Origin: Candidatus Nealsonbacteria bacterium
GTDB taxonomy: Bacteria > Patescibacteriota > Minisyncoccia > Minisyncoccales > MHMH01
Reading direction: 5' to 3'
Assembly: GCA_016181965.1 (NCBI GenBank)
Contig: JACOYH010000007.1
Coordinates: forward strand, 7,110-71,109
Length of the DNA: 64,000 nucleotides
The position numbers were made by a program, and so were the translations under genes. Positions 4,537-60,903 of the stretch are shown one piece after another; positions within the stretch are counted from its first letter, which is position 1; each line of letters begins with the position of its first letter. The notes under the pieces were generated by a model. That model was not told where the DNA came from and made no database searches. It saw only the letters and a program-made list of their open reading frames with translations.

Positions 4537-4561
4537 GTGTTAGACATTGAATGTCTAACAC
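4537..4561. repeat. Palindrome family P3, copy 1 (GTGTTAGACAT tga ATGTCTAACAC)
   Basis: Perfect 11-bp arms with a 3-nt centre, 13 nt upstream of the GerMN ATG. The same arms recur at 58705..58729. Confidence 0.85.
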
Positions 4562-4645: not shown

Positions 4646-4698
4646 CTTTACCGAGGACTGTCCTTGCCAGATTCTGGCAAGGACAGTCCTCGGTAAAG
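4646..4698. repeat. 53-nt perfect hairpin/palindrome (25-bp arms, 3-nt loop) just after the AlkD-like gene stop
   Basis: ctttaccgaggactgtccttgccag att ctggcaaggacagtcctcggtaaag. No U-tract follows on the minus strand. Confidence 0.85.
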
Positions 4699-5537: not shown

Positions 5538-6584
5538 TTAACTGAATTGCCCGATGATTTTATCGATTAAATTATTTAAGTTATGGTGCTTAACTACGAT
5601 TTCTCTTCTTAATTGAGGATCTGCGGGGGCTGTCATTAGATTAGTAATTTTATCGGCTAAATCATTGGCATTGCCTTTTTCAAAAATGTATTTATCGGCC
5701 AGAATTTTTTTATAGGCCTCGTTGCAGGTTAAAACAAGACAGCCCGCAGCCATGGCTTCCAGCACTACTTTATCCAAACTGCCGGTTGAGCTGGGGTTAA
5801 CAAATAAATCGGCCTCTTGATAATATTCTGGCATTTTGGCGTGAGGCGCGCCGGCCAAAAACTCTATATGTTCGTTTAGTTTATAATTTTTAGCTTGCTC
5901 TTTCAGGTCAGCCAGATATTTTTTTTCTGACTCTACGAGAGGTGTGCCCATAATTTTTAAGTTGATGTTGCAGACCTTTCTTTGGTTAACTAAAATATTC
6001 ATTGCTTCAATAAGAGTGGCGTGGCCCTTAACTGGCACGAGACGCGCCGCATATAACAAGCGGAAGGATAGAAGCCCGGCTTCCCGCGGAAGCCGGGCCT
6101 CTTGAACCGGCCGGAAAAGTTCGGTGTCTATTCCCTGTCCCAGCGCTTCTATTTTTTTGCTCGAAAGCCGACAGCCATCGGGCGAGGAAGTTACAATGTT
6201 GTCCACCAGTTTTTCTGCTATTTTCAGCTTAAGAGGCGTGGCTCCGTGCGCATACCATAAAATCAATTTTTTCCCGAAAATCTTAGCCAAAGGAAAGCTG
6301 GCGATAGCGAAAACAGGCCCCATATGAACATAAACGCCTCTGGCTTCCGATAAATGCGCGAGCAAAAATTTCTGCAACCTCCAGAGCTGCCTTATTTTAG
6401 AATAGCCCCTTTCTTTTCCCAAAGATAAAACCTTAATATTTTTGGGCAAATGATGTTCGCCCTCCGAAAGACAAATAGCGTAAACCTCATCTAACCGTTC
6501 TGAAAACTTTTCCAGCGTGCGATAAAAAAAGCTAAGGTTGTCGTCGTTGATATCTATTTTCTGGACAATGATAATCAGCTTCAT
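5538..6584 (-). CDS. glycosyltransferase family 1 (GT4-type, GT-B fold)
   Basis: C-terminal VNPSSTGSLDKVVLEAMAAGCLVL (E-x7-E region). The stop overlaps the next gene's start. Carries palindrome P1 copy A. Confidence 0.8.
   Translation of the reverse strand: MKLIIIVQKIDINDDNLSFFYRTLEKFSERLDEVYAICLSEGEHHLPKNIKVLSLGKERGYSKIRQLWRLQKFLLAHLSEARGVYVHMGPVFAIASFPLAKIFGKKLILWYAHGATPLKLKIAEKLVDNIVTSSPDGCRLSSKKIEALGQGIDTELFRPVQEARLPREAGLLSFRLLYAARLVPVKGHATLIEAMNILVNQRKVCNINLKIMGTPLVESEKKYLADLKEQAKNYKLNEHIEFLAGAPHAKMPEYYQEADLFVNPSSTGSLDKVVLEAMAAGCLVLTCNEAYKKILADKYIFEKGNANDLADKITNLMTAPADPQLRREIVVKHHNLNNLIDKIIGQFS
6071..6101. repeat. Palindrome family P1, copy A, in-frame inside the GT4 gene
   Basis: gaaGCCCGGCTTCCcgcGGAAGCCGGGCctc, translated on the minus strand as EARLPREAGL. 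Confidence 0.85.
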
Positions 6585-8627: not shown

Positions 8628-9709
8628 CTTTTTACTTTTTGATAAATATCATATACCCTATTGGCGATATTTTGCCAGTTATATTTTGGCAAGACATTTT
8701 TTGCATTTTCAACCAGCATTTTGGCAAAATCAGGGTTGGATTGAATCTTGAATAAGGCCTCGCTAATTTGGCCAACATTGCCCGGCTCAACCAAAAGGCC
8801 GGTTTTCTGGTCTTCAATCAAGTCCAAAATACCTCCTACCCCGCTGGCAACAACCGGCAAGCCAGCGGCCTGCGCTTCCAAAACAACAATGCCAAAACCC
8901 TCTTGAATAGAGGGCAGAACAAAACAGTCGGCCATTGCCAAGTAAAAAGGAATTTTTTCATTGGGAATTTCTCCGAGAAATTCCACGCTATCTTCTGATT
9001 TTAATTGTTTAACTAAATTCTCAAGGTCCTTTCGCCTACTACCATCGCCGATAACCATTAACTCACTTGGTTGACACCTGGTGTCAACCAACGCTCTTAT
9101 TAAATATTCCACTCCCTTGACTTTTTCTAATCGGGCCACCGTAATGACAATAAACTTCTCGCGGGGCTGTCTCTTGATGTTTTCAAATCTCGATAGGTCC
9201 ACTCCGTTGGGAATAACTGCAACCTTTTTTACACCTATGTCTTCAAAATTTTTCTTGACGGCCGAAGAAGCGGCAATACAAAAAGCGGCTTTTCTGTAAA
9301 TAAAATTTTTCAAAGGATTTCTTTTCTTTTCGAGCCGTTGAACGGTAGTAATATAGGGAACTCTTGTTACGACAGAGAGGCAAAAACCCAGAAAGCTGCT
9401 TAGAAAACCTTGGCAGTGTAAAATATCAATTTTCTCTTGCCGCATTAAAATTAATGATTTCAGGAAAATACAGGGCAATAGGGAAACGGTATAGATTTTA
9501 GGGGAACGCGACAAATCAGATAAGGTAAAAAACGAAGTCCGGAAAATGCGCAATCCGCCTGCGGCCTCCTTGTTGGGCCGATTCTTTACCCTGCCTGTCA
9601 CCACGAAAACCTCGGCTTTTTTGGAAACATTCTCGGCAATATTGCGGGTCCATGTCTCAATGCCTCCAACAACCGGATAATAATGAAGCGCCGGCATCAA
9701 TATTTTCAT
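8624..9709 (-). CDS. glycosyltransferase family 1 (GT4-type)
   Basis: MKILMPALHYYPVVGGIETW... and VLPSIQEGFGIVVLEAQAAGLPVVASGVGG. Carries palindrome P2 copy 1. Confidence 0.85.
   Translation of the reverse strand: MKILMPALHYYPVVGGIETWTRNIAENVSKKAEVFVVTGRVKNRPNKEAAGGLRIFRTSFFTLSDLSRSPKIYTVSLLPCIFLKSLILMRQEKIDILHCQGFLSSFLGFCLSVVTRVPYITTVQRLEKKRNPLKNFIYRKAAFCIAASSAVKKNFEDIGVKKVAVIPNGVDLSRFENIKRQPREKFIVITVARLEKVKGVEYLIRALVDTRCQPSELMVIGDGSRRKDLENLVKQLKSEDSVEFLGEIPNEKIPFYLAMADCFVLPSIQEGFGIVVLEAQAAGLPVVASGVGGILDLIEDQKTGLLVEPGNVGQISEALFKIQSNPDFAKMLVENAKNVLPKYNWQNIANRVYDIYQKVKR
9067..9091. repeat. Palindrome family P2, copy 1, in-frame inside a GT4 gene
   Basis: TTGGTTGACACC t GGTGTCAACCAA, 12-bp perfect arms, encoding VDTRCQPS on the minus strand. 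Confidence 0.85.
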
Positions 9710-19934: not shown

Positions 19935-20042
19935 CAAAAAGAAGTTATCCACAGAATTAGAAATCGGAGAAACTCAACTTGTGCGACACTCGGTGTTGCA
20001 CAAATGCCCGACATCGGGAATCGGTAACTTCAATGATATCAT

Positions 20043-20885: not shown

Positions 20886-20953
20886 TATTTTATTATACCA
20901 TTATGTCAGCATGATGTCAGGATGTCCGGCACCCCTCAATTCTGTACTTGTTA

Positions 20954-21007
20954 GGTCTGTTAGAGCCAGGCTCTAACAAGCTTGTTAGAGCCTGGCTCTA
21001 ACAGACC
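20954..21007. repeat. 54-bp perfect palindrome centred on ACAAGCTTGT
   Basis: ggtctgttagagccaggctctaacaag|cttgttagagcctggctctaacagacc. An extra taacagacc copy follows at 21011-21023. Confidence 0.9.
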
Positions 21008-21026
21008 TGCTAACAGACCTAACAGA

Positions 21027-21057
21027 AAACAAAAGCCCCCGAGATAATCTCGAGGGC
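21027..21057 (-). terminator. Rho-independent terminator of the 1395-aa surface-protein gene
   Basis: Minus-strand RNA gcccucgag auuau cucgggggc (9-bp stem with one G-U pair) followed by UUUUGUUUU. Confidence 0.65.
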
Positions 21058-21116
21058 TCTTGCTTTTCTCCCGCACAATCTCTCACAAGGAAAAAGATGC
21101 GGAAATTCCTACAGCG

Positions 21117-25454: not shown

Positions 25455-26204
25455 TTATTGGTTATTATGCGCCTGCCAAAGCTTGTATAGGGCTTCTTGG
25501 TAGAGCCCTGCGTCGTAATCCTGCATGGCCTGCTTTAGCAGTTCTTGTTTTTCTTCAGTTAATGTTCTGCTTGATAAATCCTCTATCAAATATCCGGCTG
25601 TCTGTTTCTCTAAAACGCTCAAAGCATTTTTCAAATCCTGCGTATCGCCAACCTCGGCGCCCAAGACCCTTTCTACTCTTTCTTTGTTTTCTGCTAATTT
25701 CAGGGTTTCTTCAACTAATTCTCGCAGCACAATAGCGTCCGAGCTGGTTACGTTGGCATCCATATCATTGAGATTCTGGGTGGCCTGCACCAAACTTGCC
25801 TGAAATTCTTTGATGGCCGGCTCTAATTTTCCAACCTGATTGCTTTCGGCTATTTGGCTTAATTCTGCCAGGCGCTTATTGGCTAATTGTAGCTGGACTT
25901 TTGGCTTTTCCATTTCCGAAGAAAATCCCACCTGCACGGTTTCAGTCGCTTTCTTGATTGAAAAGAAAAAGTCGCCGGGCATGGTGCCTTGCGCAAAGCC
26001 GAAAAGCCCGATAACAAGCACGACGCTCAAAATCGGAGCAAAGGCCAGCTTGTATCTGAAAACAGAAAATACCGAGGCCATTTCTTCCGCTTCCCTTGTC
26101 TGCTCTTGGGCCAGAATTCTGCTCTTAGTCAAAACAACCCAGTCCTTTCTGGGTTTGATTTCCTTGAGACATTTTAGATTGTGGATAAGTTCATTATCGG
26201 TCAT
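25455..26204 (-). CDS. membrane-anchored anti-sigma-like protein with a DUF5667-type helical domain
   Basis: ATG at 26204 (MTDNELIHNLKCLKEIKP...), one TM (LAFAPILSVVLVIGLFGF), then PGDFFFSIKKATETVQVGFS..KVQLQLANKRLAEL. The ORF-track start at 26333 is TTG and reads through a palindrome. Confidence 0.65.
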   Translation of the reverse strand: MTDNELIHNLKCLKEIKPRKDWVVLTKSRILAQEQTREAEEMASVFSVFRYKLAFAPILSVVLVIGLFGFAQGTMPGDFFFSIKKATETVQVGFSSEMEKPKVQLQLANKRLAELSQIAESNQVGKLEPAIKEFQASLVQATQNLNDMDANVTSSDAIVLRELVEETLKLAENKERVERVLGAEVGDTQDLKNALSVLEKQTAGYLIEDLSSRTLTEEKQELLKQAMQDYDAGLYQEALYKLWQAHNNQ

Positions 26205-26276
26205 ATCGGATATCGATTGTCTATTATAGTTATGACGGAAAAGAAGATATTTTGTTACACCAATATCCAGCCATCG

Positions 26277-26330
26277 TTTGTGATAGGCCGGGCTTATCAC
26301 AAGCTTGTGATAAGCCCGGCCTATCACAAA
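26277..26330. repeat. 54-bp perfect palindrome centred on ACAAGCTTGT, between the sigma and anti-sigma genes
   Basis: tttgtgataggccgggcttatcacaag|cttgtgataagcccggcctatcacaaa. Confidence 0.9.
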
Positions 26331-26349
26331 CAAACCGCTTATTACAAAC

Positions 26350-26850
26350 TTACTGTAATTCCGCTCTTAAGGCCTTCAGAGCTCTGTGGATAACCACCCT
26401 AACCGCCTCTTCCGACTTATTCAAAATCTTGGCAATTTCGGGAACCGTAAACTCATCCAAATAATACCAAACAATGATCTCCCGATAGTTGTCATTAACC
26501 TTAGCCAAAGCCGCCTTAATCCTCCCCACGTCAGAGGTCAGCATGGCTATTTCCTCCAAACTTTTTTCCCTGCTCTGCGCCTGCGGCACACTCTCCATTG
26601 AGACAAATTGGGCCTGCGCCTTTTGGCGGTATTGGTCGGTGACCAGATTACGGGCTATTTGATATAAAAATGCCTGTGGATTATCTATCTTGGACGCTTG
26701 TTTTTGGAAGGCCTCCCAACCCCTCGTAAATGTCTCGGAAGTAAGGTCTTCGGCGATTTCTTGAGAGTTCACCTTAAGGTAAATAAAGCGATAGATTTTA
26801 TCTACGCTTTTGTCGTATATTTTACCAAATTCTTTTTCTAATTGTGACAT
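26350..26850 (-). CDS. RNA polymerase sigma-70 family factor, ECF subfamily
   Basis: 166 aa with region 2 (IYRFIYLKV.SQEIAEDLTSETFTRGWEAF) and region 4 HTH (EFTVPEIAKILNKSEEAVRVVIHRALKALR). Confidence 0.85.
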   Translation of the reverse strand: MSQLEKEFGKIYDKSVDKIYRFIYLKVNSQEIAEDLTSETFTRGWEAFQKQASKIDNPQAFLYQIARNLVTDQYRQKAQAQFVSMESVPQAQSREKSLEEIAMLTSDVGRIKAALAKVNDNYREIIVWYYLDEFTVPEIAKILNKSEEAVRVVIHRALKALRAELQ

Positions 26851-26936
26851 TGACTGATTTATTGACTAAAAAATGTGACATTATGCTTAACAATTGTGCC
26901 ATTTTACATGCTTATGGCACAATTAATGTCACAATT
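26840..26936. promoter_or_regulatory. Cluster of five AAT(T)GTG(A/C)CAT(T) motifs arranged as nested inverted repeats
   Basis: 26840 aattgtgacatt (overlaps the sigma ATG), 26872 aatgtgacatt, 26892 aattgtgccatt, 26914 atggcacaatt (rc), 26925 aatgtcacaatt (rc). Further copies at 25399 and 27437. Confidence 0.6.
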
Positions 26937-27423
26937 TAATGCTGTAGTTGGCGCCCCGGCCGTTCCCTGTCCTGACAATACTACCACCCTTATACAGATC
27001 TTCCAAGTCCCTAATAAGGGTTCTTCGGCTCAACTGCGGGAAAATCTGTATAAGTTCGCCCACCCTGACTTTGTCTTTATTCTTAATAATTTCTACTATC
27101 TGTTCTTTACGAGTTCCGTTGCCCTTCTCTGCGTCTACGGAATCCGTAATCCGATCGTATTCTCTGCGTAAAACGATGAAATTGCGGCTATCGGCCAAGT
27201 TCTTTTTCTGCGCTCGGCCCAAAAAACTGTCCAGTTCTTTAATGCTTTCGCCCAAGGCCTCGGCAGTGAGGTATGGATTGGGCCAAATTAAATCAGCTAA
27301 TACCTTATTAGCTGATGTCCTAATTTGCTGTCGCAATAATTCATCTTCGGGCAATAATTCAGTGACCTTGTAGACAGCAAGAGTCAATTTAAGATAATGT
27401 TCTTTGCTATCATTTGACCACAT
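26929..27423 (-). CDS. putative transcriptional regulator: N-terminal four-helix-bundle (IVS-protein-like) domain plus C-terminal DeoR-type winged HTH
   Basis: HYLKLTLAVYKVTELLPEDELLRQQIRTSANKVLADLI; RKEQIVEIIKNKDKVRVGELIQIFPQLSRRTLIRDLEDLYKGGSIVRTGNGRGANY. Confidence 0.55.
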   Translation of the reverse strand: MWSNDSKEHYLKLTLAVYKVTELLPEDELLRQQIRTSANKVLADLIWPNPYLTAEALGESIKELDSFLGRAQKKNLADSRNFIVLRREYDRITDSVDAEKGNGTRKEQIVEIIKNKDKVRVGELIQIFPQLSRRTLIRDLEDLYKGGSIVRTGNGRGANYSIKL

Positions 27424-27810: not shown

Positions 27811-27863
27811 TTGAGGGGTTTACGACATCCCTCATTAAGTGAGTGATGTCGTAAACCCCTCAA
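27811..27863. repeat. 53-nt hairpin (19-bp perfect outer arms plus inner stem) after the coiled-coil gene
   Basis: ttgaggggtttacgacatc c ctcat taa gtgag t gatgtcgtaaacccctcaa. No U-tract follows. Confidence 0.8.
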
Positions 27864-28445: not shown

Positions 28446-31400
28446 AAGCCATAAAATCTATAGGGGGTAAACTATCTTTGCAAAAGACGATTTTAACGAT
28501 TGCCATAGCCGCAATCGTTTTTTCTTTCTTGTCCAATTATTCTTTGGCCGGCCAAACAAAAGTCAACCAGCAAGAAATGCAAAGAATCAAACAGGGCTTG
28601 GATATTGTTAAAACAGCTTCAAGTTTCGGAAGCGTTCTTCTTGACGATGGCGGCTTAATGAAAGCGCTCAACACGGTTATCAAGGGCGGCAGCGCGGCCA
28701 CGGATGTCACCTACGGCCTGCTTGTCTTGAGCGCCGTCAACGAAATGGAACTAATGGATTTGGTGCTTTCGCAGGAGTATAAAACAATAGAAAGAGAATA
28801 TTTTGAACAAATTTTAGACGAGAGGACCAATTTAATATCTTATTGGAGAGGAGTTGGTTTTGACTTGCCCAAAGTGCTCTCTGGACAGATTACCGGCCCC
28901 ATGGCTGGCTTAACTTTAAACAGCTTTGCTATGACCAACAAAATTATCCATATTGCCACCGCGTTTGAAGTGTTAAAAAAAGGCCAACTGTATGATGGCC
29001 TATGGTATTACTTTGATTTAAGAAAAAATAGCAATGAGCCGCATGAAATAGCTTGGCGCGAAGCAAAAATGATACTTGGTTTTGCGACTAATTCAGTGGG
29101 ATTTCACGGACCAACACAAAGACAGAATAAAAGAATCGAGCTCGAAGCTCAATTCACATCCCTTTGGGATAAATGGGGGCTATACGCCACGCCAGGAGGC
29201 ATCAGTAATCAGTATCAAGAACAAGCAAAAGAGGAAATGAGAAGCATGCTGGCCGTGGCAGCTGAAACGCAAAGGTTAGCTGAAATAGAAAAACAAAAAG
29301 AACCATCTTGGCTATCAAAACAAATAGATGAACTCAAAACACTCGCGTCAGGCCTTGGAGAAAAAATTCACACTATGGTCTCCAAGATCGCCGACGCCAA
29401 TCCCTTTAGCGCCGGCCCAATTGTCCAATCGCCAAAAGATACACCGGTGGCACCGGTGCGAAATTCGGCCGGGCTTCAGAGCCCCAAAAACCGAGAATCA
29501 GAAGACCAAACCCCGACAGAAAGAGGCGAAGAAGCCCGGCTTCCTCGGGAAGCCGGGCTTCAGGTTCCACGAGAGGTCCCACGAGAGGTCAAACCTCAAG
29601 CGCCTCAAGAGATTGAAAGTGAAAAGACAACAGAGGAGAAAGTGAAAGATAAAGAGGTCCGAGAAGAGGAAAAAATTAAAATAGTCGAGATCAAACCCAC
29701 GCCAGATGAGCCGGGACTTTGCGAGAAAATTGCCGGGGACTTGCCTAAAAGATATAGGGCTTTCATTAACGAGGTGGCCTGGATGGGCAGTCAAAATTCG
29801 CCAAATGACGAATGGATTGAGCTGAAAAATATTTGGGGCTTACCCGTCAATCTTAACGGCTGGCAATTACAAGACAAAGACCAGCAAATAAAAATAATTT
29901 TTGAAGAAAATGATACTATTCCGGCCAGCGGATATTATCTTTTAGAAAGGACAAATGATGACTCAACGCCCAAAGCCAAGGCCGACAAAATATACACGGG
30001 CGCTTTAGGCAATAACAATGAGGCCTTATATTTATTTGATAATGACTGCCGATTGGAAGACGAAGTTATAGCCGATCCCAGTTGGCCAGGCGGCGACAAT
30101 ACCGCTAAAAAAACAATAGAACGGCTGGATCCCTTATACTGGTACACAAGCGCTTCTATAGGGGGCAGCGCCGGAAAAAACAACGGCACGCCTCCGGCAA
30201 TTTTAAAGCACCCCAGCGCGCCAACTCCCCCTTTGCCTGCTTCAGCGCCGACTTATCTTACAATTTTGATTGACGAAGTCAGAATTGATGGCGATGGAAA
30301 TATCAAAAACGATTCCGTTAAACTCTACAATCCCAACGATACGGCGGTTGATTTAACAAATTGGTATTTGCAAAGGAAAACAGCGAACTCTTCCGTATTC
30401 TCAACTTACGCGCCAAAATCGCTTTTTGCCGGAAAATCCATTGAGGCAAACGGATACTTTTTAATTGCTCACGCTTCTTCAACGTTCGCTACTTCCGCAG
30501 ACGCCATCACAACTTACTCTCTGACTCGAAATAATACCCTCGTCTTAAAAAATCCAAATGGTGAAATAGCGGACACGGCGGAGCCAGCAGAAAATAACGA
30601 AGAAACGGCGTCGTTATCGGTTGTTATCAACGAAATCGCTTGGGCAGGCGCTAAGGCCAATTCTGCCGATGAGTGGATTGAACTTTACAACAACACTACT
30701 TCAGGTATTGATTTGACTAATTGGTCAATTTTGAAAGATGACGAGGAATGGATTATCTTTTCCACCTCAAGCATCGTCTCGCAGGGATATTATTTATTGG
30801 AAAGAAGCGACGATCAGACAATCAGCGATATTACGGCCGACCAATTTTTTACCGGCGCTCTAAGCAACAGCGGCCAAAAATTAGAATTAAAAAATGCAGC
30901 CGGTGACTTAATGGACTTAATTGATTTTTCTTCTAATTGGCCAGCCGGCGAAGCCGCCCCAAACTATCTTTCAATGGAAAGGATATCTTCTACTTTCAGC
31001 GATTGGGCTAGCAATAATCGAATCTCAACAAACGGCTTGGGTAGCGGCAATAATGCCATCAACGGCACGCCGAAAGAAAAAAATAGCGTTTCGAAGTCCT
31101 TCACAGAAGTTGTCGGCGATCGCGTATTTTCAGACGACTTTACGCTTACAAAACTTGGCAGTCCTTATATTTGGGAGGGCTCCCTTATCATGGAGCAGGG
31201 GACTAAATTAACCGTCGAACCCGGCGTTACCGTAAAATTCAAGCACACTGCCCCTAACCAGCCCCACGCTCAAGTAAAAATAAAAGGCGAGATGGAGGCC
31301 ATTGGAACAAACGAGCAAGAAATAACTTTTACGTCTTTTCAGGAAAATAATTATTGGGACGGGCTTTATTTTGAGAATTCAAATTCTACTCTTGAAAATG

Positions 31401-35932: not shown

Positions 35933-35958
35933 ACTACTATACTACATAGTATAGTAGT
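35933..35958. promoter_or_regulatory. 26-bp AT-rich palindrome, site 1 of 3 (candidate operator)
   Basis: ACTACTATACTA ca TAGTATAGTAGT, 103 nt upstream of the clpB ATG and 60 nt after the NDT-like gene stop. Confidence 0.6.
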
Positions 35959-36504: not shown

Positions 36505-36530
36505 ACTACTATACTACATAGTATAGTAGC
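36505..36530. promoter_or_regulatory. 26-bp palindrome, site 2 of 3
   Basis: ACTACTATACTA ca TAGTATAGTAGc, 1 nt after the regulator's stop codon and 74 nt upstream of the NDT-like ATG. Confidence 0.6.
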
Positions 36531-37022: not shown

Positions 37023-37054
37023 AACACTACTATACTATATAGTATAGTAGTGTT
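37023..37054. promoter_or_regulatory. palindrome site 3 of 3, here a perfect 32-bp palindrome abutting the regulator's -10 box
   Basis: aacACTACTATACTA ta TAGTATAGTAGTgtt. On the minus strand a TATAAT (37023-37018) follows directly, 15 nt before the ATG at 37002. Confidence 0.65.
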
Positions 37055-47600: not shown

Positions 47601-49781
47601 TTAAATATTACAAGTGGGGCAGCTGCCGGGAGGCAGGTCGGGCAGTTCGGGAGAAGGGTCTCTCAACTCCGGCGGCACTTCTGTCTCGGGCACTTTTTTC
47701 TCAACGGGCAATTCTTTCTGCCCTTTCGTCTTGATGTTCAATACCTGCTGCTGTCGGCTGCCTGTTCTGAAAACAGTAATCCCCTTGCATCGCAGATCGA
47801 AAGCCAAAAAATAGGCCCCTCTAATGTCATCCTCCGAGGCCTCATAAGGAAAATTAATGGTTTTAGAAACAGCATTGTCGCTGTATTTTTGGAAAGCTGC
47901 TTGCGCTCTGACATGATCTTCCGGAGTTATGTCAAAAGCAGTTACAAAAATCTTCCGCACTTCTTTTGGAATTTCTTCTATTTCCTGAATACTCGCCTCG
48001 CCCGCCGCTTTTTCCAAAACACTGCTGCCGTCTAATTTTTTATTTTCGAGCATTTCTTCAAATAAAGGATTTGTCTCGGTCATTTCTTCGCCTCCCAGCA
48101 CGTGTTTTCTGGTGAAAGAAACCGCGAAAAGCGGTTCAATGCCCGAAGAACAACCGGCGATTATGCCAATTGTTCCCGTCGGAGCAATCGTTGTGGTAGT
48201 GGAATTTCTCAATGGCTCAGCCCCATCGGTGTCATAAATACTGCCCCGGAAATTTGGAAAAGGCCCTCTCTCTTTGGCCATTTCGCGGGAAGCCGCCTTG
48301 GATTCGTCTTGTATAAATTGCATTATTTTTTCGGCCGTTTGCAGCGCTTCTTTTGAATTGTAGGGTGTTTCCAGTCGAATCAGCATATCGGCAAAACCCA
48401 TCACCCCTAAGCCAATTTTGCGGTTGCCCTTAGTCATCTCTTCGATTTCTTTTAAGGGATAACGGTTGACTTCAATGACGTTGTCCAAAAATCTGGTAGC
48501 TGTGCGGATGGTGTGTTTCAATTTTTGCCAATCAATTTCCCACTTGTCTTCTCCTTTCTTTTTCAGCATCTTTTGCAAATTGATACTGCCAAGGTTGCAC
48601 GATTCGTATGGCAATAACGGTTGTTCGCCGCATGGATTTGTGCTTTCAATTTCGCCGAGCTTGGGAGTAGGATTTTGTTCGTTTATCCTATCAATAAAGA
48701 TAACGCCCGGATCTCCGGTTTCCCAAGCATAACGAGTAATCAGTTCAAAGACCGTTTTTGCGTTTAGAGCCCCCCAAACCTGGCTTGTTCTGGGATTTAT
48801 TAAATCATAATCCTGGTCTTTTCTTGCTTTCTCCATGAACTCATCGGTAACGGCAACCGAGATGTTGAAATTAGAGAGAATTCCCTCCTCGTGCTTAGCG
48901 GTAATAAACTCCATAATATCGGGGTGGTCTACTCGCAGTATGCCCATGTTGGCTCCTCTTCTTTTGCCGCCCTGCTTGATGGTGTTAGTGGCTGCGTCGA
49001 AAACAGTCATAAAACTAATGGGACCCGAAGCCACGCCTTTGGTGCTTTTCACTACGTCGCCTCGGGGACGCAAACGAGTAAAACTAAAACCGGTCCCTCC
49101 CCCCGACTGATGAATAAGGGCTGAATTTTTTACTGCATCAAAAATGCTGTCCAAAGAATCCTTGACCGGCAAAACAAAACAGGCCGAAAGCTGCTGCAAA
49201 ACGTTCCCGGCGTTCATTAATGTGGGAGAATTAGGCAAAAAGTCCAAAGAGGCCATCATGCGATAAAATTTTTCTTCAACTCTAAACAAATCGTCTTCGC
49301 TTAGTTCGGGATTGTATATTTTTTCTGCCGAGGCGATATTTTGAGCCACCCTTCTAAAAAGCTGCTGGGGTGTTTCAACGATCTTACCCAATTCATTTTT
49401 TTTCAAATATCTGGACTCCAGCACTCGCAAAGCGTTAGCCGATAATCTGGTTCTTACTTGGTGGTTTAAGAGCCACCATTTGGCCTCTCGAATTTCAGTT
49501 CTTTTCTGCCGATAATTGTGGTAGGCGAGGGCGACTTCCCCGAGGTTTTCCTTTTTAAAAACCTCTTCTACGGTGTCTTGGATTTGTTCGACTTCGGGAA
49601 TTTGGCCGGCGAATCTTTCGTTTAAAGCCAAAACGACCTTGTCGGAAAGACCTTCGGCCAGCTCTTCTTTCTGGCCGTTCACAATCAATGCTCTCACAAT
49701 GGCGGTAGTAATTTTTTCTTGGTTCCAGTCCACTACCCGGCCATCTCTTTTTTTGATTTTAGCAAACTTGCTCTCTATCAT
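47601..49781 (-). CDS. nrdJ: adenosylcobalamin-dependent (class II) ribonucleotide reductase with an N-terminal ATP-cone
   Basis: KIKKRDGRVVDWNQEKITTAIVRAL (ATP-cone); TNPCGEQPLLPYESCNLGSINL. No NrdB- or NrdD-type partner in the window. Confidence 0.85.
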   Translation of the reverse strand: MIESKFAKIKKRDGRVVDWNQEKITTAIVRALIVNGQKEELAEGLSDKVVLALNERFAGQIPEVEQIQDTVEEVFKKENLGEVALAYHNYRQKRTEIREAKWWLLNHQVRTRLSANALRVLESRYLKKNELGKIVETPQQLFRRVAQNIASAEKIYNPELSEDDLFRVEEKFYRMMASLDFLPNSPTLMNAGNVLQQLSACFVLPVKDSLDSIFDAVKNSALIHQSGGGTGFSFTRLRPRGDVVKSTKGVASGPISFMTVFDAATNTIKQGGKRRGANMGILRVDHPDIMEFITAKHEEGILSNFNISVAVTDEFMEKARKDQDYDLINPRTSQVWGALNAKTVFELITRYAWETGDPGVIFIDRINEQNPTPKLGEIESTNPCGEQPLLPYESCNLGSINLQKMLKKKGEDKWEIDWQKLKHTIRTATRFLDNVIEVNRYPLKEIEEMTKGNRKIGLGVMGFADMLIRLETPYNSKEALQTAEKIMQFIQDESKAASREMAKERGPFPNFRGSIYDTDGAEPLRNSTTTTIAPTGTIGIIAGCSSGIEPLFAVSFTRKHVLGGEEMTETNPLFEEMLENKKLDGSSVLEKAAGEASIQEIEEIPKEVRKIFVTAFDITPEDHVRAQAAFQKYSDNAVSKTINFPYEASEDDIRGAYFLAFDLRCKGITVFRTGSRQQQVLNIKTKGQKELPVEKKVPETEVPPELRDPSPELPDLPPGSCPTCNI

Positions 49782-49880: not shown

Positions 49881-49932
49881 CGGTTGCTCGGCCTTTCATA
49901 ACTTATCCACAGACCGCCACGACAATGCAAAT

Positions 49933-55986: not shown

Positions 55987-57987
55987 ATGGAAAAGTCAAC
56001 CCTAGACCGGGTTTTAATCGTTGGCATCACCCCCTACTTCTTGGAAAGGGAGAATTTTTGGTTTGAAGAAAACCTGCAAAAGATATTAACGGCGAGAAAA
56101 ACCCAGTCGTTCTTTGAAGATAATATTGTTTTTTTAGAAAAGGGCAGTGATTTCAATTTTTCGCGGCTGCTCCGGCAACTTGACGAAATGGGCTATGAAA
56201 TAGTGCAAGAAGTCGCGGAACCCGGCGAAATAGCAAGGCATGGCGGCACGATTGACATTTTTCCGGTCAACTTAAATCGGGCCGTTAGAATTAATTACTT
56301 CGGCAACAAGATTGAAGAAATAGAACAATCAAATACTTGTGTTAGCGATGAAAAAAAAGACAAAGAACGGCTGAAGAAAAAACTAAAGAATCAAAAAATA
56401 TATTCCCAATTGCAAGGCCTAAAGCCGGGCGATTTTTTGGTGCACCTAGACCACGGCATCGGGCTCTTGACGGGGATAACTGGAAGTCCGGCTTCCGCGG
56501 GAAGCCGGACTTCCTCGTTTCCGTTTCCGCAGAAATATTACGTTTTAGAATATGCCTCGGGCGATAAATTATATGTGCCGCTGGGCCTTGAGAGAAAACT
56601 TTCGCGCTATGTCGGCTTTATTAATCCTAAAATTTCCCGGTTGAGCGCGCCGACTTGGTTGAATACGAAAAGGAAAGTCAAAGAGGAAACCGAAAAGTTA
56701 GCCGCAGAGCTTCTGGAAATATACGCTCAACGAGAAGTGGCTCGGCGCCAGCCCTACAGCCGCGATTTTGAAATGGAAGCGAAAATTCAAGAGACGTTTG
56801 CCTATCTTGAAACACCCGATCAGGCGCAGGCAACAAATGACATTGCCAAGGACCTTGAAGAGTCGGAAATGCCTATGGACAGGATTGTCTGCGGGGACGT
56901 TGGTTTTGGCAAAACAGAAATCGCCCTAAGGGCTGTCATTAAGGCGGTAAGCAACGGCAAGCAGGCGGCCATGATTTGCCCCACCACTATTTTGGCTTCA
57001 CAGCACTATCAAAACTTCACCCACCGGCTGAACAATCTGCCAGTCAAAATCGCGCTGATAAGCCGCCTGCAATCTAAAAGCGAACAAAAAACAATTGCCG
57101 GACAATTAAAGGCGGGGGAAATAGACATTGCCATTGGCACTCACCGGCTGCTTTCTGCCGATATTGCATTTAAGAATTTGGGCATGCTCGTTATCGACGA
57201 CGAGCAGAAATTCGGCGTGGAGCAAAAAGAGCGTCTCAAAAGAATCCGGCCGCAGTTAGATATTCTCTCGCTGTCGGCTACGCCCATTCCCCGCACTCTT
57301 TATTTTGCTCTCTCATCGCTAAAGAATATCAGTATTGTTAAAACGCCTCCGCCGGAACGGTTGCCTGTTGAGACCTTTATCAAACCACGCTCGGAAAAAA
57401 TTATCCGGCGGGCAATTGAGGCGGAAATCACCAGAGGAGGCCAGGTTTATTATTTGCACAACCGAGTTGCCACCATTGAAATGGTTAAAAAATCTTTGGC
57501 GGAAAAATTCCCCCATCTGAATGTTGGCGTTGTTCACGGCAGAATGAATGAACCGGAAATGGTGTCGGTCATGCGCGATTTCAAAGAAAAAAATATTGAT
57601 GTGCTCGTAGCCACCACTATTATTGAAAACGGCATAGACCTCTCCAACGCCAATACTTTGGTTGTGGCCGATGCCGCCAAACTCGGCTTGGCGCAGGCGC
57701 ACCAAATCAGGGGCAGAGTGGGTCGCTCAAATGTTCGGGCCTTTGCCTATTTTCTGCATTCGGGCAAATTAAACGATTTAGCAAAAAGGCGCCTGCAAGC
57801 GCTCAAAGAGGCGCAAAATCTTGGGTCGGGCTATAAAGTCGCCCTGCAAGATATGGAAATACGAGGGGCAGGCAATATTCTCGGCAAAGAACAATCGGGC
57901 AGTGTCAATCAAGTGGGTCTGAATTTGTACTGTCAGATGTTAAGCGAAGTGATTGAAAAACTGAAAACTGCCAAACCTGCCCCGTAA
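55987..57987 (+). CDS. mfd: transcription-repair coupling factor Mfd, shortened (666 aa)
   Basis: UvrB_inter-like N-terminus (GEIARHGGTIDIFP), CarD_TRCF/RID (LKPGDFLVHLDHGIG...YVLEYASGDKLYVPL), and SF2 motifs GDVGFGKTE, DDEQKFG, SATPIPRTL. No visible D2 or D7 regions. Confidence 0.85.
   Translation: MEKSTLDRVLIVGITPYFLERENFWFEENLQKILTARKTQSFFEDNIVFLEKGSDFNFSRLLRQLDEMGYEIVQEVAEPGEIARHGGTIDIFPVNLNRAVRINYFGNKIEEIEQSNTCVSDEKKDKERLKKKLKNQKIYSQLQGLKPGDFLVHLDHGIGLLTGITGSPASAGSRTSSFPFPQKYYVLEYASGDKLYVPLGLERKLSRYVGFINPKISRLSAPTWLNTKRKVKEETEKLAAELLEIYAQREVARRQPYSRDFEMEAKIQETFAYLETPDQAQATNDIAKDLEESEMPMDRIVCGDVGFGKTEIALRAVIKAVSNGKQAAMICPTTILASQHYQNFTHRLNNLPVKIALISRLQSKSEQKTIAGQLKAGEIDIAIGTHRLLSADIAFKNLGMLVIDDEQKFGVEQKERLKRIRPQLDILSLSATPIPRTLYFALSSLKNISIVKTPPPERLPVETFIKPRSEKIIRRAIEAEITRGGQVYYLHNRVATIEMVKKSLAEKFPHLNVGVVHGRMNEPEMVSVMRDFKEKNIDVLVATTIIENGIDLSNANTLVVADAAKLGLAQAHQIRGRVGRSNVRAFAYFLHSGKLNDLAKRRLQALKEAQNLGSGYKVALQDMEIRGAGNILGKEQSGSVNQVGLNLYCQMLSEVIEKLKTAKPAP
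56482..56514. repeat. Palindrome family P1, copy C, exactly 11 codons inside the Mfd RID domain
   Basis: GGAAGTCCGGCTTCC gcg GGAAGCCGGACTTCC, 15-bp perfect arms. Starts at a codon boundary and encodes GSPASAGSRTS. Confidence 0.9.
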
Positions 57988-58019: not shown

Positions 58020-58045
58020 AAAAAGTTGAGGACAATGTCCTCAAC
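58020..58045 (-). terminator. Rho-independent terminator of paralogue 2
   Basis: Minus-strand guugaggac auu guccucaac followed by U5. Confidence 0.65.
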
Positions 58046-58049
58046 TATA

Positions 58050-58704: not shown

Positions 58705-58729
58705 GTGTTAGACATCGGATGTCTAACAC
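58705..58729. repeat. Palindrome family P3, copy 2
   Basis: GTGTTAGACAT cgg ATGTCTAACAC, 59 nt upstream of the paralogue-2 ATG. Confidence 0.85.
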
Positions 58730-58884: not shown

Positions 58885-60903
58885 ATGAAACTCATTATCG
58901 TTGAGTCGCCGACAAAAAGCAAAACCCTGCAATCGTTTTTGGGAAAAGACTACAAAGTGCTTTCTTCTTTTGGCCACGTAAGAGACCTTCCCAAGGGCTC
59001 TCTTGGCGTTGATTTGGAAAATAATTTTAAGCCAAAATACGTCATTCCCACAAAATCAAGAAAAACTGTGACCGCCCTGAAGAAAGAACTGCCAAAAAGC
59101 GATTCGGTTGTTTTAGCGACTGATGAGGACAGAGAGGGCGAGGCCATTGCTTGGCATTTGGCGCAGGCGCTTGATTTAAGCGGGCAAAAAAAATACGAGA
59201 GAATCGCTTTTCATGAAATTACAAAGCCGGCGATATTGGAAGCGCTGAAAAACCCCCGCGAAATAGACATGAATTTAGTCAACGCCCAGCAGGCGAGACG
59301 GGTGCTCGACAGAATTGTCGGCTATAAACTTTCGCCTTTTTTATGGAAAAAAATCGCCCGCGGCCTGTCGGCCGGCAGAGTTCAGTCGATAGCCGTTCGG
59401 CTGGTGGTAGAGAGAGAAAGGGAAATCAAAAAGTTTCAATCTCAAGAATATTGGAGCATTATTGCCCTTCTTATTGCCGAGGACAGTCCTCGGCAATTTG
59501 AAACAATATTATACAAAAAAAATGGCGAGGCCATAGATAAGCTGGCGATAAAAAATACCGAAGAAGCAGAAGCAATAATCAGCGAGTTAAGGGGGGCGGA
59601 ATACAAAGTCGAAAATATTGAAAAAAAGGAAAGTCGCAGAAATCCCCTGCCCCCTTTCACTACCTCAACTCTCCAGCAAGATGCTTGGCGCAAATTTAAA
59701 TTTCCGGCCAAGTTCACTATGCGCATCGCTCAAAATCTTTACGAAAGAGGATTTATCACTTACCACCGCACCGACTCTTTGAATCTTTCCGGTTTAGCCC
59801 TGGGAGCGGCGAAGGAATTGATTACTGAAAGATATGGCCAAAATTACCATCAGTTCAGAAAATACAAAAGCAAAGGCAGGGCGCAAGAAGCGCATGAAGC
59901 CATCAGGCCGACCAACGCCGACAGACCTCCCAAAAACCTTGACGAAAACCAACGCCGCCTTTATGAGCTAATCTGGCAAAGATTTATCGCCTGCCAAATG
60001 GCCCCGGCTGTTTTTGACGCTGTGGCCATTGATATCGCGGCTCAAAATTATACCTTCAGGGCCAACGGCCAAACATTAAAATTCGACGGCTTCTTAAAAG
60101 CATACCCCATTAAATACGAAGAAACAGATTTGCCTCTTTTAGAAAAAGAAGAGATTTTGGAATTAAAAAAACTCGTAACCTCTCAGCACTTTACCCAGCC
60201 GCCTGCCCGATACACCGAAGCCACGCTGATCAAGGCCCTGGAAGCAGAGGGCATTGGCAGGCCCTCAACTTACGCCCCAACGCTCTCTACTATTCAAGAC
60301 AGGAATTATATTGAAAAAAATGAAAAACGCTATTTCCAGCCGACCGAAATCGGCACGGTGGTCAACGACCTTTTGGTTGAACATTTCCCTCAAATTGTCG
60401 ACATAAAATTTACGGCCAATATGGAGGATGCCTTGGACAAAATTGCCGAAGGCGAAGCCGAGTGGACGAAAATCATCGGAGAATTTTACGGGCCCTTCGC
60501 GGAAAATCTTGAAAAAAAATACGAGGAGGTTTCCAAAAAGGACTTCACCGAAAAACCCACCGGCAAAACGTGCCCCAAGTGCGGCTCTCCCCTAATAATG
60601 CGGCTGGGAAAATTCGGCCAATTCTATGCCTGCTCTAAATTCCCCGACTGCAAATACACCGAGTCACTGCCGCAAAAAAATCTGAATGTTAAATGTCCGA
60701 AATGCCTTGAGGGCGATTTGGTGGAAAAAAGAACCAAGCGCAAAAAAATATTTTACGGCTGTAATCGCTTCCCCAAGTGCGATTTTGCTTTGTGGGACAA
60801 ACCAACTGGCGAAAAATGCCAAAAGTGCGGCTCTCTATTGGTAGAGAAACAAAAAAAGATAAAATGCTCAAATAAGGAGTGCGACTACCAGAAAGACAAA
60901 TAA
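58885..60903 (+). CDS. topA: DNA topoisomerase I (type IA) with C-terminal zinc ribbons
   Basis: Toprim MKLIIVESPTKSKTL..ATDEDREGEAIAWH; active-site region ITYHRTDS; three C4 ribbons (CPKCGSPL...CSKFPDC and others). Confidence 0.95.
   Translation: MKLIIVESPTKSKTLQSFLGKDYKVLSSFGHVRDLPKGSLGVDLENNFKPKYVIPTKSRKTVTALKKELPKSDSVVLATDEDREGEAIAWHLAQALDLSGQKKYERIAFHEITKPAILEALKNPREIDMNLVNAQQARRVLDRIVGYKLSPFLWKKIARGLSAGRVQSIAVRLVVEREREIKKFQSQEYWSIIALLIAEDSPRQFETILYKKNGEAIDKLAIKNTEEAEAIISELRGAEYKVENIEKKESRRNPLPPFTTSTLQQDAWRKFKFPAKFTMRIAQNLYERGFITYHRTDSLNLSGLALGAAKELITERYGQNYHQFRKYKSKGRAQEAHEAIRPTNADRPPKNLDENQRRLYELIWQRFIACQMAPAVFDAVAIDIAAQNYTFRANGQTLKFDGFLKAYPIKYEETDLPLLEKEEILELKKLVTSQHFTQPPARYTEATLIKALEAEGIGRPSTYAPTLSTIQDRNYIEKNEKRYFQPTEIGTVVNDLLVEHFPQIVDIKFTANMEDALDKIAEGEAEWTKIIGEFYGPFAENLEKKYEEVSKKDFTEKPTGKTCPKCGSPLIMRLGKFGQFYACSKFPDCKYTESLPQKNLNVKCPKCLEGDLVEKRTKRKKIFYGCNRFPKCDFALWDKPTGEKCQKCGSLLVEKQKKIKCSNKECDYQKDK
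59473..59497. repeat. 25-nt perfect palindrome in-frame inside topA
   Basis: ATTGCCGAGGAC a GTCCTCGGCAAT, encoding IAEDSPRQ. Shares aggacagtcctcgg with the 53-nt hairpin at 4646-4698. Confidence 0.85.

Follow-up and report, generated by a model that had tools for sequence, protein, structure and literature searches.

The 64-kb window analysed here, meaning the whole stretch of 64,000 nucleotides, comes from a metagenome-assembled genome (MAG) of Candidatus Nealsonbacteria in the candidate phyla radiation (CPR/Patescibacteria), and its sigma factor has a 100% match that carries this annotation. The element in question, I1, is a perfect palindrome of 56 bp located between the genes for an extracytoplasmic function (ECF)-type sigma factor and for a DUF5667 membrane protein, a putative anti-sigma factor. 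Comparison with related loci shows I1 to be a lineage-specific insertion between the sigma stop codon and a conserved candidate promoter, and a young palindromic insertion, similar to hairpin-forming doublets of repetitive extragenic palindromic sequences (REPINs) or to Rickettsia palindromic elements (RPEs), is the best reading of its class. That such a palindromic-repeat insertion has an incidental or modest effect at the RNA level is considered slightly more likely than not. The features of the locus are as follows.

26276-26331, no strand: I1, perfect palindrome of 56 bp, arms 26276-26303 and 26304-26331
26350-26850, minus strand: ECF-type sigma-70 family gene (Sigma70_r2 7.5e-12, Sigma70_r4 3.1e-13)
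25455-26204, minus strand: gene for the DUF5667 membrane protein, putative anti-sigma factor (DUF5667 5.6e-11), start at ATG 26204
26234-26259, minus strand: candidate ECF-type promoter of the DUF5667 gene, TGTAAY-N16-CGTCATAAT, from conservation and consensus
26335-26349, minus strand: left flank GTTTGTAATAAGCGG, matching the palindrome's first 15 nt at 12/15 positions

The sigma stop codon (26350-26352), the DUF5667 start codon (ATG, 26204) and the gap of 145 nt between them agree with the first-pass annotation of this stretch, which had also correctly placed the palindrome between the two genes. It had described an AAGCTT-centred palindrome of 54 bp that fills most of the gap; the palindrome exists and is perfect, its true length is 56 bp with one base more per side, and its measured share of the gap is 39%. 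I1 begins 18 nt past the sigma stop and ends 16 nt short of the -35 box. The TTG-extended open reading frame (ORF) starting MFVIGRAYHKLVISPAYHK is spurious, being a translation of I1; the N-terminus FVIGRAYHKLVISPAYHK is, as already recognized, the palindrome translated, and all DUF5667 orthologues align from the ATG as residue 1. The gene order, comprising a DeoR-like helix-turn-helix (HTH) gene, the sigma gene, the DUF5667 gene and the gene for a giant protein of ~1400 amino acids (aa), is kept among relatives. No paper on DUF5667 was found among open-access papers.

The sigma-DUF5667 spacer was compared across 80 metagenomic loci fetched by the sigma protein and five loci from closer relatives (given L numbers here). 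The alignment contains a single strongly conserved block, GTGTAAY-AAAAT...CCGTCATAAT. In the window, the corresponding promoter has the -35 box TGTAAC (26259-26254), a 16-nt spacer and the -10 box CGTC (26237-26234; CGTCATAAC), and lies 30 nt from the DUF5667 start, a distance that is roughly 10-70 nt across loci and mostly <40 nt. The motif TGTAAY-N15-18-CGTC has one occurrence in the window; about 30 loci likewise have one apiece, on the gene strand, and the spacer is 16 nt long in 26 of the 27 non-redundant ones. It is comparable to the ECF16 promoter consensus (T/C)GTAAC-N17-CGAA (PMC8315932), having a (T/C)GTAAC-like -35 box, a CGT/CGA-like -10 box, a spacing of 16-17 nt and an adjoining cognate sigma gene. 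The motif is therefore read as the cognate promoter of the sigma factor, from which the DUF5667 gene would be expressed and, probably, the giant gene next to it as well. In the more distant homologues L033, L034 and L038, the motif precedes the sigma gene, as is classical for autoregulation. Since the conserved ECF-type motif lies between I1 and its ATG, the DUF5667 gene has its own predicted promoter, and the presumed anti-sigma factor and the giant surface protein may be under sigma control in a feedback loop rather than simply co-transcribed with sigma. Such an arrangement, with DUF5667 and the giant protein as sigma targets (negative feedback), would differ from the usual autoregulated sigma/anti-sigma operon.

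The spacer measures 40-65 nt in aligned relatives versus 145 nt in the window, and across loci the sigma stop and the -35 box are separated by a bimodally distributed distance. In 15 loci this distance is -5 to +16 nt and no hairpin is present; in the -5 nt cases the stop codon TAA forms part of the -35 box (GTG TAA TAA AAT). The hairpin-less state was detected in L003-L006 and L044 (67-73% sigma identity), in L132 (80%), where the slot is empty, and in L026 (51%). As it is found across relatives of 51-80% identity, the arrangement with the sigma stop inside the -35 box and without a hairpin is, on this distribution, the ancestral one, and an ECF-type promoter overlapping the sigma stop codon appears to be the real conserved feature of the locus. 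The window and eight or nine other loci have 33-114 extra nt at this point, always made up of one or two strong hairpins whose sequences show no relation from one lineage to the next (L010, L015/17/18, L019, L020/42, L023 and L025). L131 (83%) carries in the same slot a 27-nt hairpin, TTTGGCTCAAG-TCAAG-CTTGAGCCAAA, which is AAGCTT-centred and has a GGCT...AGCC core. In L135 (83%) the slot holds a different palindrome (687-740, TGTTCGGTGTT-C-AACACCGAACA), behind which the right arm is repeated twice more in tandem, so that duplication of an arm beside a hairpin is plain to see in the sigma/-35 slot. L013, L030 and L032 have larger insertions in the same slot: 318-563 nt separate the stop from the -35 box, with strong folding (-82 to -96 kcal/mol).

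The insert in the window is ~90 nt long and is bounded by the stop (CAG TAA G) on one side and by the functional -35 box TGTAAC (26259-26254) on the other. The left flank holds TGTAATAA, which matches the ancestral -35 sequence, and TGTAA-like repeats are present on either side of the insert (CAGTAAG / TGTAATAA ... TGTAACAA); because such copies flank it, the stop codon and the -35 box are both preserved. The I1 structure is not conserved in the orthologous operons, being absent from the 15 loci and replaced by unrelated sequence elsewhere, and I1 does not belong to the conserved sigma/DUF5667 circuit. The first-pass annotation, which saw in the palindrome a stem between two co-transcribed genes, had named structureless spacers in relatives as an outcome that would tell against it, and this is what the 15 loci, including those with 67-80% sigma identity, present.

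The two arms of I1 are 28 nt each, with 100% complementarity and a gap of 0 nt, and the AAGCTT centre is at 26301-26306. The strong RNA stem foreseen by the first-pass annotation is reproduced by folding: I1 RNA forms a 26-bp stem with an AGCU loop at -48.8 kcal/mol, compared with ~-22.7 kcal/mol for two separate hairpins, and the folding z-score of the 171-nt spacer region is -9.8. A single arm is itself an imperfect hairpin (-13.3 kcal/mol, equalled by 0/2000 shuffles, p < 0.0005) with the layout TTGTGATA-G-GCC-G-GGC-T-TATCACAA. I1 thus consists of two inverted hairpins and is perfect as an inverted repeat and imperfect as a direct repeat; the arms are not tandem copies, since one is the reverse complement of the other. 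The inner loops are copies of an 11-bp core, AAGCC-N-GGCTT.

26285-26295, no strand: core copy 1, AGGCCGGGCTT, loop of the first inner hairpin (AAGCCNGGCTT search, <=1 mismatch)
26312-26322, no strand: core copy 2, AAGCCCGGCCT, loop of the second inner hairpin (core search; doublet spacing 27)

Two Logan contigs from different runs, SRR12113430 and SRR12113384, encode an identical sigma factor and both stop at ...CACAAGCT, the centre of I1. In de Bruijn assembly with k = 31, a break is expected at a true palindrome longer than k. As both contigs break exactly at the palindrome centre, I1 is genuine and not an assembly artefact. Exact look-ups of the DUF5667 and 1395-aa proteins for contigs stretching from one palindrome centre to the other gave no match. 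Rfam 15 yielded no match at gathering thresholds, and a permissive scan returned generic long-hairpin miRNA-precursor models only, far under threshold; a known RNA family as the identity of I1 was rejected at both levels.

Perfect stems of >=11 bp number 17 in the window versus 0-1 in shuffles. Four long palindromes are present, all intergenic and downstream of stops (4646-4698, 20953-21008, 26276-26331 and 27811-27863); three lie 8-18 nt past the stop, and I2 lies 108 nt past it. I2 is the earlier palindrome that the first-pass annotation had implied by calling I1 the second.

20953-21008, no strand: I2, sister palindrome, 56 bp, perfect, ACAAGCTTGT centre as in I1, GCC-N-GGC inner loops
21035-21057, minus strand: canonical intrinsic terminator of the 1395-aa gene, 10-11 bp stem, 3-nt loop, TTTTGTTTT

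The arm of I2 is nested as well (p = 0.004), and the element occupies the stretch that separates the 1395-aa gene's canonical terminator, directly behind which it lies, from the promoter that follows. The DUF5667/giant-protein unit is enclosed by I1 and I2, and over 20953-21066 I2 is preceded by ~2.5 direct copies of its own arm start (AGGTCTGTTAG). The other two long palindromes, 4646-4698 (26+1+26, perfect) and 27811-27863 (24/24, 96%), stand 8 and 14 nt after stops without a U-tract; their centres are not AAGCTT, and the arm of 27811-27863 is itself a hairpin (p = 0.0045).

With <=1 mismatch, the core motif was observed 11 times in the window versus 4.4 expected, and 8/11 copies fall within four doublets. 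Such core doublets number four in the 64-kb window versus none in 294 kb of related CPR loci; the same loci hold five perfect palindromes with arms >=15 nt, none of them nested, a comparison biased by the under-representation of palindromes in short-read assemblies. The three sister doublets have a spacing of 18, the form GAAGCCCGGCTTCC-N3-GGAAGCCGGGCTTC and a length of 29-33 bp, and are located in frame in unrelated ORFs.

6072-6100, no strand: sister core doublet, in frame in a glycosyltransferase ORF, encoding ARLPREAGL
29532-29560, no strand: sister core doublet, in frame in a 1335-aa ORF, encoding EARLPREAGLQ
56484-56512, no strand: sister core doublet, in frame in an Mfd-like ORF, encoding GSPASAGSRTS

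The Mfd stretch amounts to ~8 extra residues relative to E. coli Mfd and ~11 relative to most CPR orthologues (58-69% identity), and two aligned Mfd orthologues carry unrelated insertions at the same site.

For other genomes, one genome per prokaryotic species, the source genome not among them, was scanned with the pattern GGCT-N3-4-ACAAGCTTGT-N3-4-AGCC. The scan gave 48 matches versus ~35 by chance, 36 of them with arms of only 5-7 bp. Three matches are from CPR genomes, and two of these are 48-bp perfect palindromes nested like I1. The one in Ca. Kaiserbacteria (arms TTGTGCAGGCCAGGCTTGCACAAG and CTTGTGCAAGCCTGGCCTGCACAA) is intergenic, 19 nt past an S21-like gene and 5 nt ahead of ybeY. The one in Ca. 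Saccharibacteria (L124; arms ATGTCAAAGGCTGGCTTTGACAAG and CTTGTCAAAGCCAGCCTTTGACAT) lies in frame within mnmA, and alignment to solved MnmA structures (PDB) revealed a 12-residue insertion at the palindrome site. The arms of both self-fold significantly (p = 0.0005 and 0.0025, respectively). The Kaiserbacteria copy and I1 share an (A)GGCC-N-GGCT(T) loop including a G-T mismatch, and the stems differ, with compensation, in all four palindrome copies. In-frame insertions absent from orthologues are thus found among family members (MnmA, Mfd) and not for I1 itself. Three scans of viral contigs gave no match or one chance match, by which a viral origin of I1 was set aside. No description of palindromic repeats in CPR/Patescibacteria was found in the open-access literature. 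Multi-copy AAGCTT-centred palindromes, e.g. TGACGATAAGTGGCTGAAAACAAGCTTGTTTTCAGCCACTTATCGTCA, were also observed in unrelated genomes, in L083, L091, L094 and L100 (uncultured Saprospiraceae MAG SRP141376_co4_228) and in L093 and L101 (bacterium E14 bin.214); these are dispersed and assembly-breaking, are nearly always <=90 nt from a contig end, and have arms that are not nested.

REPINs are hairpin-forming doublets of repetitive extragenic palindromes (REPs) that are mobilised by REP-associated tyrosine transposases (RAYTs) in Pseudomonas and enterobacteria (PMC3116915, PMC3337134). I1 resembles them in being composed of two short inverted imperfect palindromes that form one long hairpin, with conserved cores and compensatory variation elsewhere, and in occupying a small intergenic gap just past a gene. 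It is unlike them in its zero spacer, its perfect symmetry, a length of 48-56 bp rather than ~100 bp, an exact sequence of low copy number, sister doublets that are mostly intragenic, the lack of a GTAG-type 5' motif and a CPR host. The many near-identical, mostly extragenic copies typical of REPINs are missing from the window, where I1 is single and 3/4 doublets are intragenic, and no RAYT (Y1 transposase) gene was seen among the window ORFs. RPEs and other MITEs (miniature transposable elements with inverted repeats) insert in frame into genes (review PMC10969869). The likeness to RPEs lies in small palindromes in a reduced genome that occur in frame in conserved genes without destroying them and also between genes, the in-frame hosts here being MnmA (L124), the window Mfd, a glycosyltransferase and a surface protein; RPEs are ~100-150 bp long with tens of copies, whereas the elements here are 29-56 bp and I1 itself is intergenic. 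I1 is therefore closest to REPINs in architecture and to RPEs/MITEs in behaviour, and is not demonstrably a member of either group. Quasipalindrome template switching, which turns imperfect inverted repeats into perfect ones (PMC7202029, PMC6357072), would explain the perfect arms and the arm-adjacent partial duplications of I1; it is a mechanism of point-mutation hotspots in E. coli and yeast that is not shown to build 56-bp palindromes and is unstudied in CPR.

The most likely course of events is that a small palindromic repeat, made of two inverted short hairpins (core AAGCC-N-GGCTT) joined at AAGCTT in the manner of a REP doublet, landed or grew by local template switching in the one place that a compact regulatory region could spare, past the sigma stop and ahead of the ECF-type promoter that would serve the DUF5667 and giant surface-protein genes. 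RNA polymerase leaving the sigma gene would transcribe I1, and the transcript would fold into the 26-bp stem 18 nt past the stop. Without a U-tract, the stem is unlikely to terminate transcription efficiently; it would most plausibly protect the 3' ends of the sigma RNA and act on read-through as a partial barrier or, being an ideal target for a double-stranded RNase, as a cleavage site. REPs are able to stabilise upstream mRNA. The sigma transcript would then tend to be uncoupled from the DUF5667/giant-protein unit, which would be left mainly to its own ECF promoter. The perfect symmetry is best accounted for by a recent origin, by continual arm-against-arm correction through quasipalindrome template switching, or by both, and the partial direct repeats found next to the arms at I1, I2, L017 and L135 would be the expected by-products of slippage or template switching.

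Several observations weigh against this account. A second copy of I1 was not found in the window (26-mer arm, <=3 mismatches; blastn-short), where 100 shuffles also gave 0 matches to the arm; the AAGCTT-centred pattern is single-copy in both other CPR genomes that have it, which lends no support to a high copy number; and no transposase was seen among the window ORFs. The flanking TGTAA repeats are degenerate, so that a target-site duplication is unproven and they can also be read as a partial arm duplication. The likeness to the Kaiserbacteria and Saccharibacteria elements is partly imposed by the search pattern, although the 48-bp extension, the nesting and the shared mismatch are not. Any effect of I1 on expression at the RNA level is one that we infer from its predicted fold. 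Finally, hairpins with T-runs occur in the sigma/-35 slot of L017 and L020, where termination may be selected, and I1 may likewise be adaptive rather than incidental.

That last point leads to an adaptive terminator or insulator, a hairpin selected to stop or cut transcription from the sigma gene so that the DUF5667/surface-protein unit is expressed solely from the ECF promoter, with repeat ancestry providing only raw material. We regard this as unlikely, albeit deserving serious consideration. I1 is like a Rho-independent terminator in having a very stable, GC-containing stem-loop a few nt past a stop (18 nt past the sigma stop and 16 nt before the -35 box), and at least eight other lineages have independently acquired hairpins in this slot, some terminator-like with T-runs (L017, L020). 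However, no U-tract follows I1, the downstream sequence being GAUGGCUGGAUAUUGG, or any of the four long palindromes, whereas the window has six canonical U-tract terminators with stems of 6-11 bp and loops of 3-6 nt. The bidirectional terminators of CPR, exemplified by another CPR locus, L104 (A-tract, stem, 2-5-nt loop, T-tract), are the class for comparison. I1 has no loop and a stem 2-3 times longer than the genome's canonical ones, and is not, judged by its sequence, a canonical terminator. Moreover, 15 lineages, including an 80% relative, do without a hairpin, I2 comes after a terminator that is already there, in a place that needs none, and family members occur within ORFs, which termination would harm. 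The long nested palindromes are distinct from terminators because of their symmetry through the centre (loop 0-1 nt) and the members within ORFs; a general reading of the long palindromes as the terminators of this organism was dropped, as canonical ones exist (one immediately upstream of I2) and members lie inside ORFs. In the model of the first-pass annotation, sigma and anti-sigma share one co-transcript, and the stem of 26-28 bp serves between the cistrons for processing or stability (as an RNase III site or exonuclease barrier) and sets their stoichiometry. The lack of a U-tract makes read-through likely, and sigma transcription in the hairpin-less relatives must run into DUF5667, crossing its promoter because the stop codon is inside the -35 box. 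A perfect RNA duplex of >20 bp is also a classical RNase III substrate, and an effect as a double-stranded RNase target or barrier on read-through RNA is possible. The long hairpins between two genes at malE-malF (REP) and at lambda sib (an RNase III site downstream of int) are comparable, as such a hairpin could block 3' exonucleases or be cut by RNase III; these act within one transcript, whereas here a predicted promoter separates a non-conserved hairpin from the next gene. This conserved dedicated promoter, downstream of I1 and 30 nt before the DUF5667 ATG, does not fit a shared transcript without an internal promoter. The hairpin is missing in most relatives and differs in sequence where present, and so is not a designed feature of the gene pair, and no RNase III gene was seen within the window. 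The co-transcript model is thus improbable.

A site acting at the DNA level, namely four TTGTGATA / TATCACAA half-sites or a cruciform bound by a regulator or recombinase, appears more improbable still. The candidates would be the upstream DeoR-like HTH protein, an enzyme of the Xer or telomere-resolvase type, or a CCNGG/AAGCTT methyltransferase. The symmetry extends through the very centre, a trait of the DNA that is not needed for RNA function, the ACAAGCTTGT centre and GGCC-N-GGCT loops are kept across distant CPR lineages while the stems vary, and the cores contain CCNGG. Yet relatives in which the entire cluster survives, together with the operator-like ATGTSRCA repeats upstream, lack the palindrome, half-site spacing varies among family members, members lie in unrelated ORFs, and no candidate enzyme gene is nearby. 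An operator for the DeoR-like regulator was rejected, since the conserved repeats are ATGTSRCA and not TTGTGATA and are kept in relatives lacking the palindrome. An integron attC site, a protelomerase target and a dif-like site appear to fit poorly, with the wrong core-site motifs and no recombinase gene nearby; several different palindromes per 64 kb, some intragenic, are a further misfit. An artefact of assembly or amplification, such as a fold-back chimera, is hardly credible: chimeric reads can yield perfect palindromes and the source is a MAG, but I1 passes on either side into unique sequence and on to conserved genes in their proper order, the left arm runs up to the centre in two independent Logan assemblies, which then break, and similar elements occur in unrelated MAGs of other studies.

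With I1 read as a palindromic insertion, the locus changes from a designed stoichiometry device to a recent insertion beside a conserved promoter. Beyond this locus, it is possible, though on balance doubtful, that I1 belongs to a CPR-wide and previously undescribed class of mobile or self-propagating palindromes, perfectly symmetric hairpins of hairpins of ~30-56 bp. Such a class would have an AAGCC-N-GGCTT (CCNGG-containing) core and often a ACAAGCTTGT centre, would spread between distant CPR lineages, would insert both intergenically and in frame in protein loops, and would owe its lasting perfection to template switching or to an unknown enzyme. Streamlined CPR genomes are generally considered repeat-poor. 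If the proposal is true, tiny perfect palindromes in mfd, in mnmA and near promoters would generate variation in CPR proteins and regulation and would also be a practical cause of contig breaks in short-read assemblies, and I1 would be one element caught reshaping a sigma-factor/promoter junction.

The 9-mer TGTGGATAA, a perfect match to the DnaA box TTATCCACA, has four copies in the window versus 0.38 expected, two of which flank I1.

26180-26188, plus strand: TGTGGATAA 9-mer in the DUF5667 gene, codons for L-I-H-N, coding by-product
26385-26393, plus strand: TGTGGATAA 9-mer in the sigma gene, codons for V-I-H-R in the conserved IHRAL motif, coding by-product

Both are placed as the first-pass annotation had them when it described the palindrome as bracketed by DnaA boxes. 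Their significance as a bracket did not hold up. Read along the coding strand, the two copies share the form xTT-ATC-CAC-Axx and the codon phase, giving (L/V)-I-H-(N/R); the sigma copy falls in the conserved region-4 IHRAL, and the presence of the 9-mers among relatives tracks codon choice and the neighbouring residue. The cumulative GC skew is monotonic, without a switch in the window, and neither dnaA nor dnaN is among the window genes. A replication origin or DnaA-box cluster was rejected, with the boxes in ORFs, the skew monotonic and dnaA absent from the window. The other two 9-mers are intergenic, at 19945-19953, 72 nt upstream of a 502-aa gene, and at 49903-49911, 122 nt upstream of a ribonucleotide reductase gene (47601-49781). 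The nrd genes of E. coli are DnaA-regulated, and 49903-49911 may be a genuine DnaA site or DnaA-regulated promoter.

Upstream of the sigma gene, at 26840-26937, the interval from the DeoR-like HTH gene to the sigma start contains the motif AATGTSRCAWT four times, three times in direct and once in inverted orientation. These repeats are kept in relatives as ATGTGACA / ATGTCGCA, and are likely an operator or promoter architecture governing the sigma gene.

Shorter palindromes were also observed elsewhere in the window. A 25-bp palindrome, GTGTTAGACAT-N3-ATGTCTAACAC, is present in two copies, one (4537-4561) 12 nt before the start of a minus-strand gene and the other (58705-58729) within the 5' end of an ORF called from a TTG, the true start of which may lie further downstream; it is possibly a shared operator or 5'-UTR (untranslated region) element. 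An AT-rich family, CTACTATACTA...TAGTATAGTAG, has three intergenic copies (35933-35958, 36506-36529 and 37023-37054) surrounding the Trp-repressor-like and HtrA-like protease genes, with GTCTGTAAG / TTTGTAAG motifs repeated nearby. Two perfect 25-bp palindromes lie within genes: 9067-9091 inside a glycosyltransferase, and 59473-59497 (ATTGCCGAGGACAGTCCTCGGCAAT) in topA, in a variable loop with 2 extra residues versus 6ozw, the solved topoisomerase I that matches it best. Their GAGGAC-N-GTCCTC core recurs at 4646-4698 and 58024-58046.

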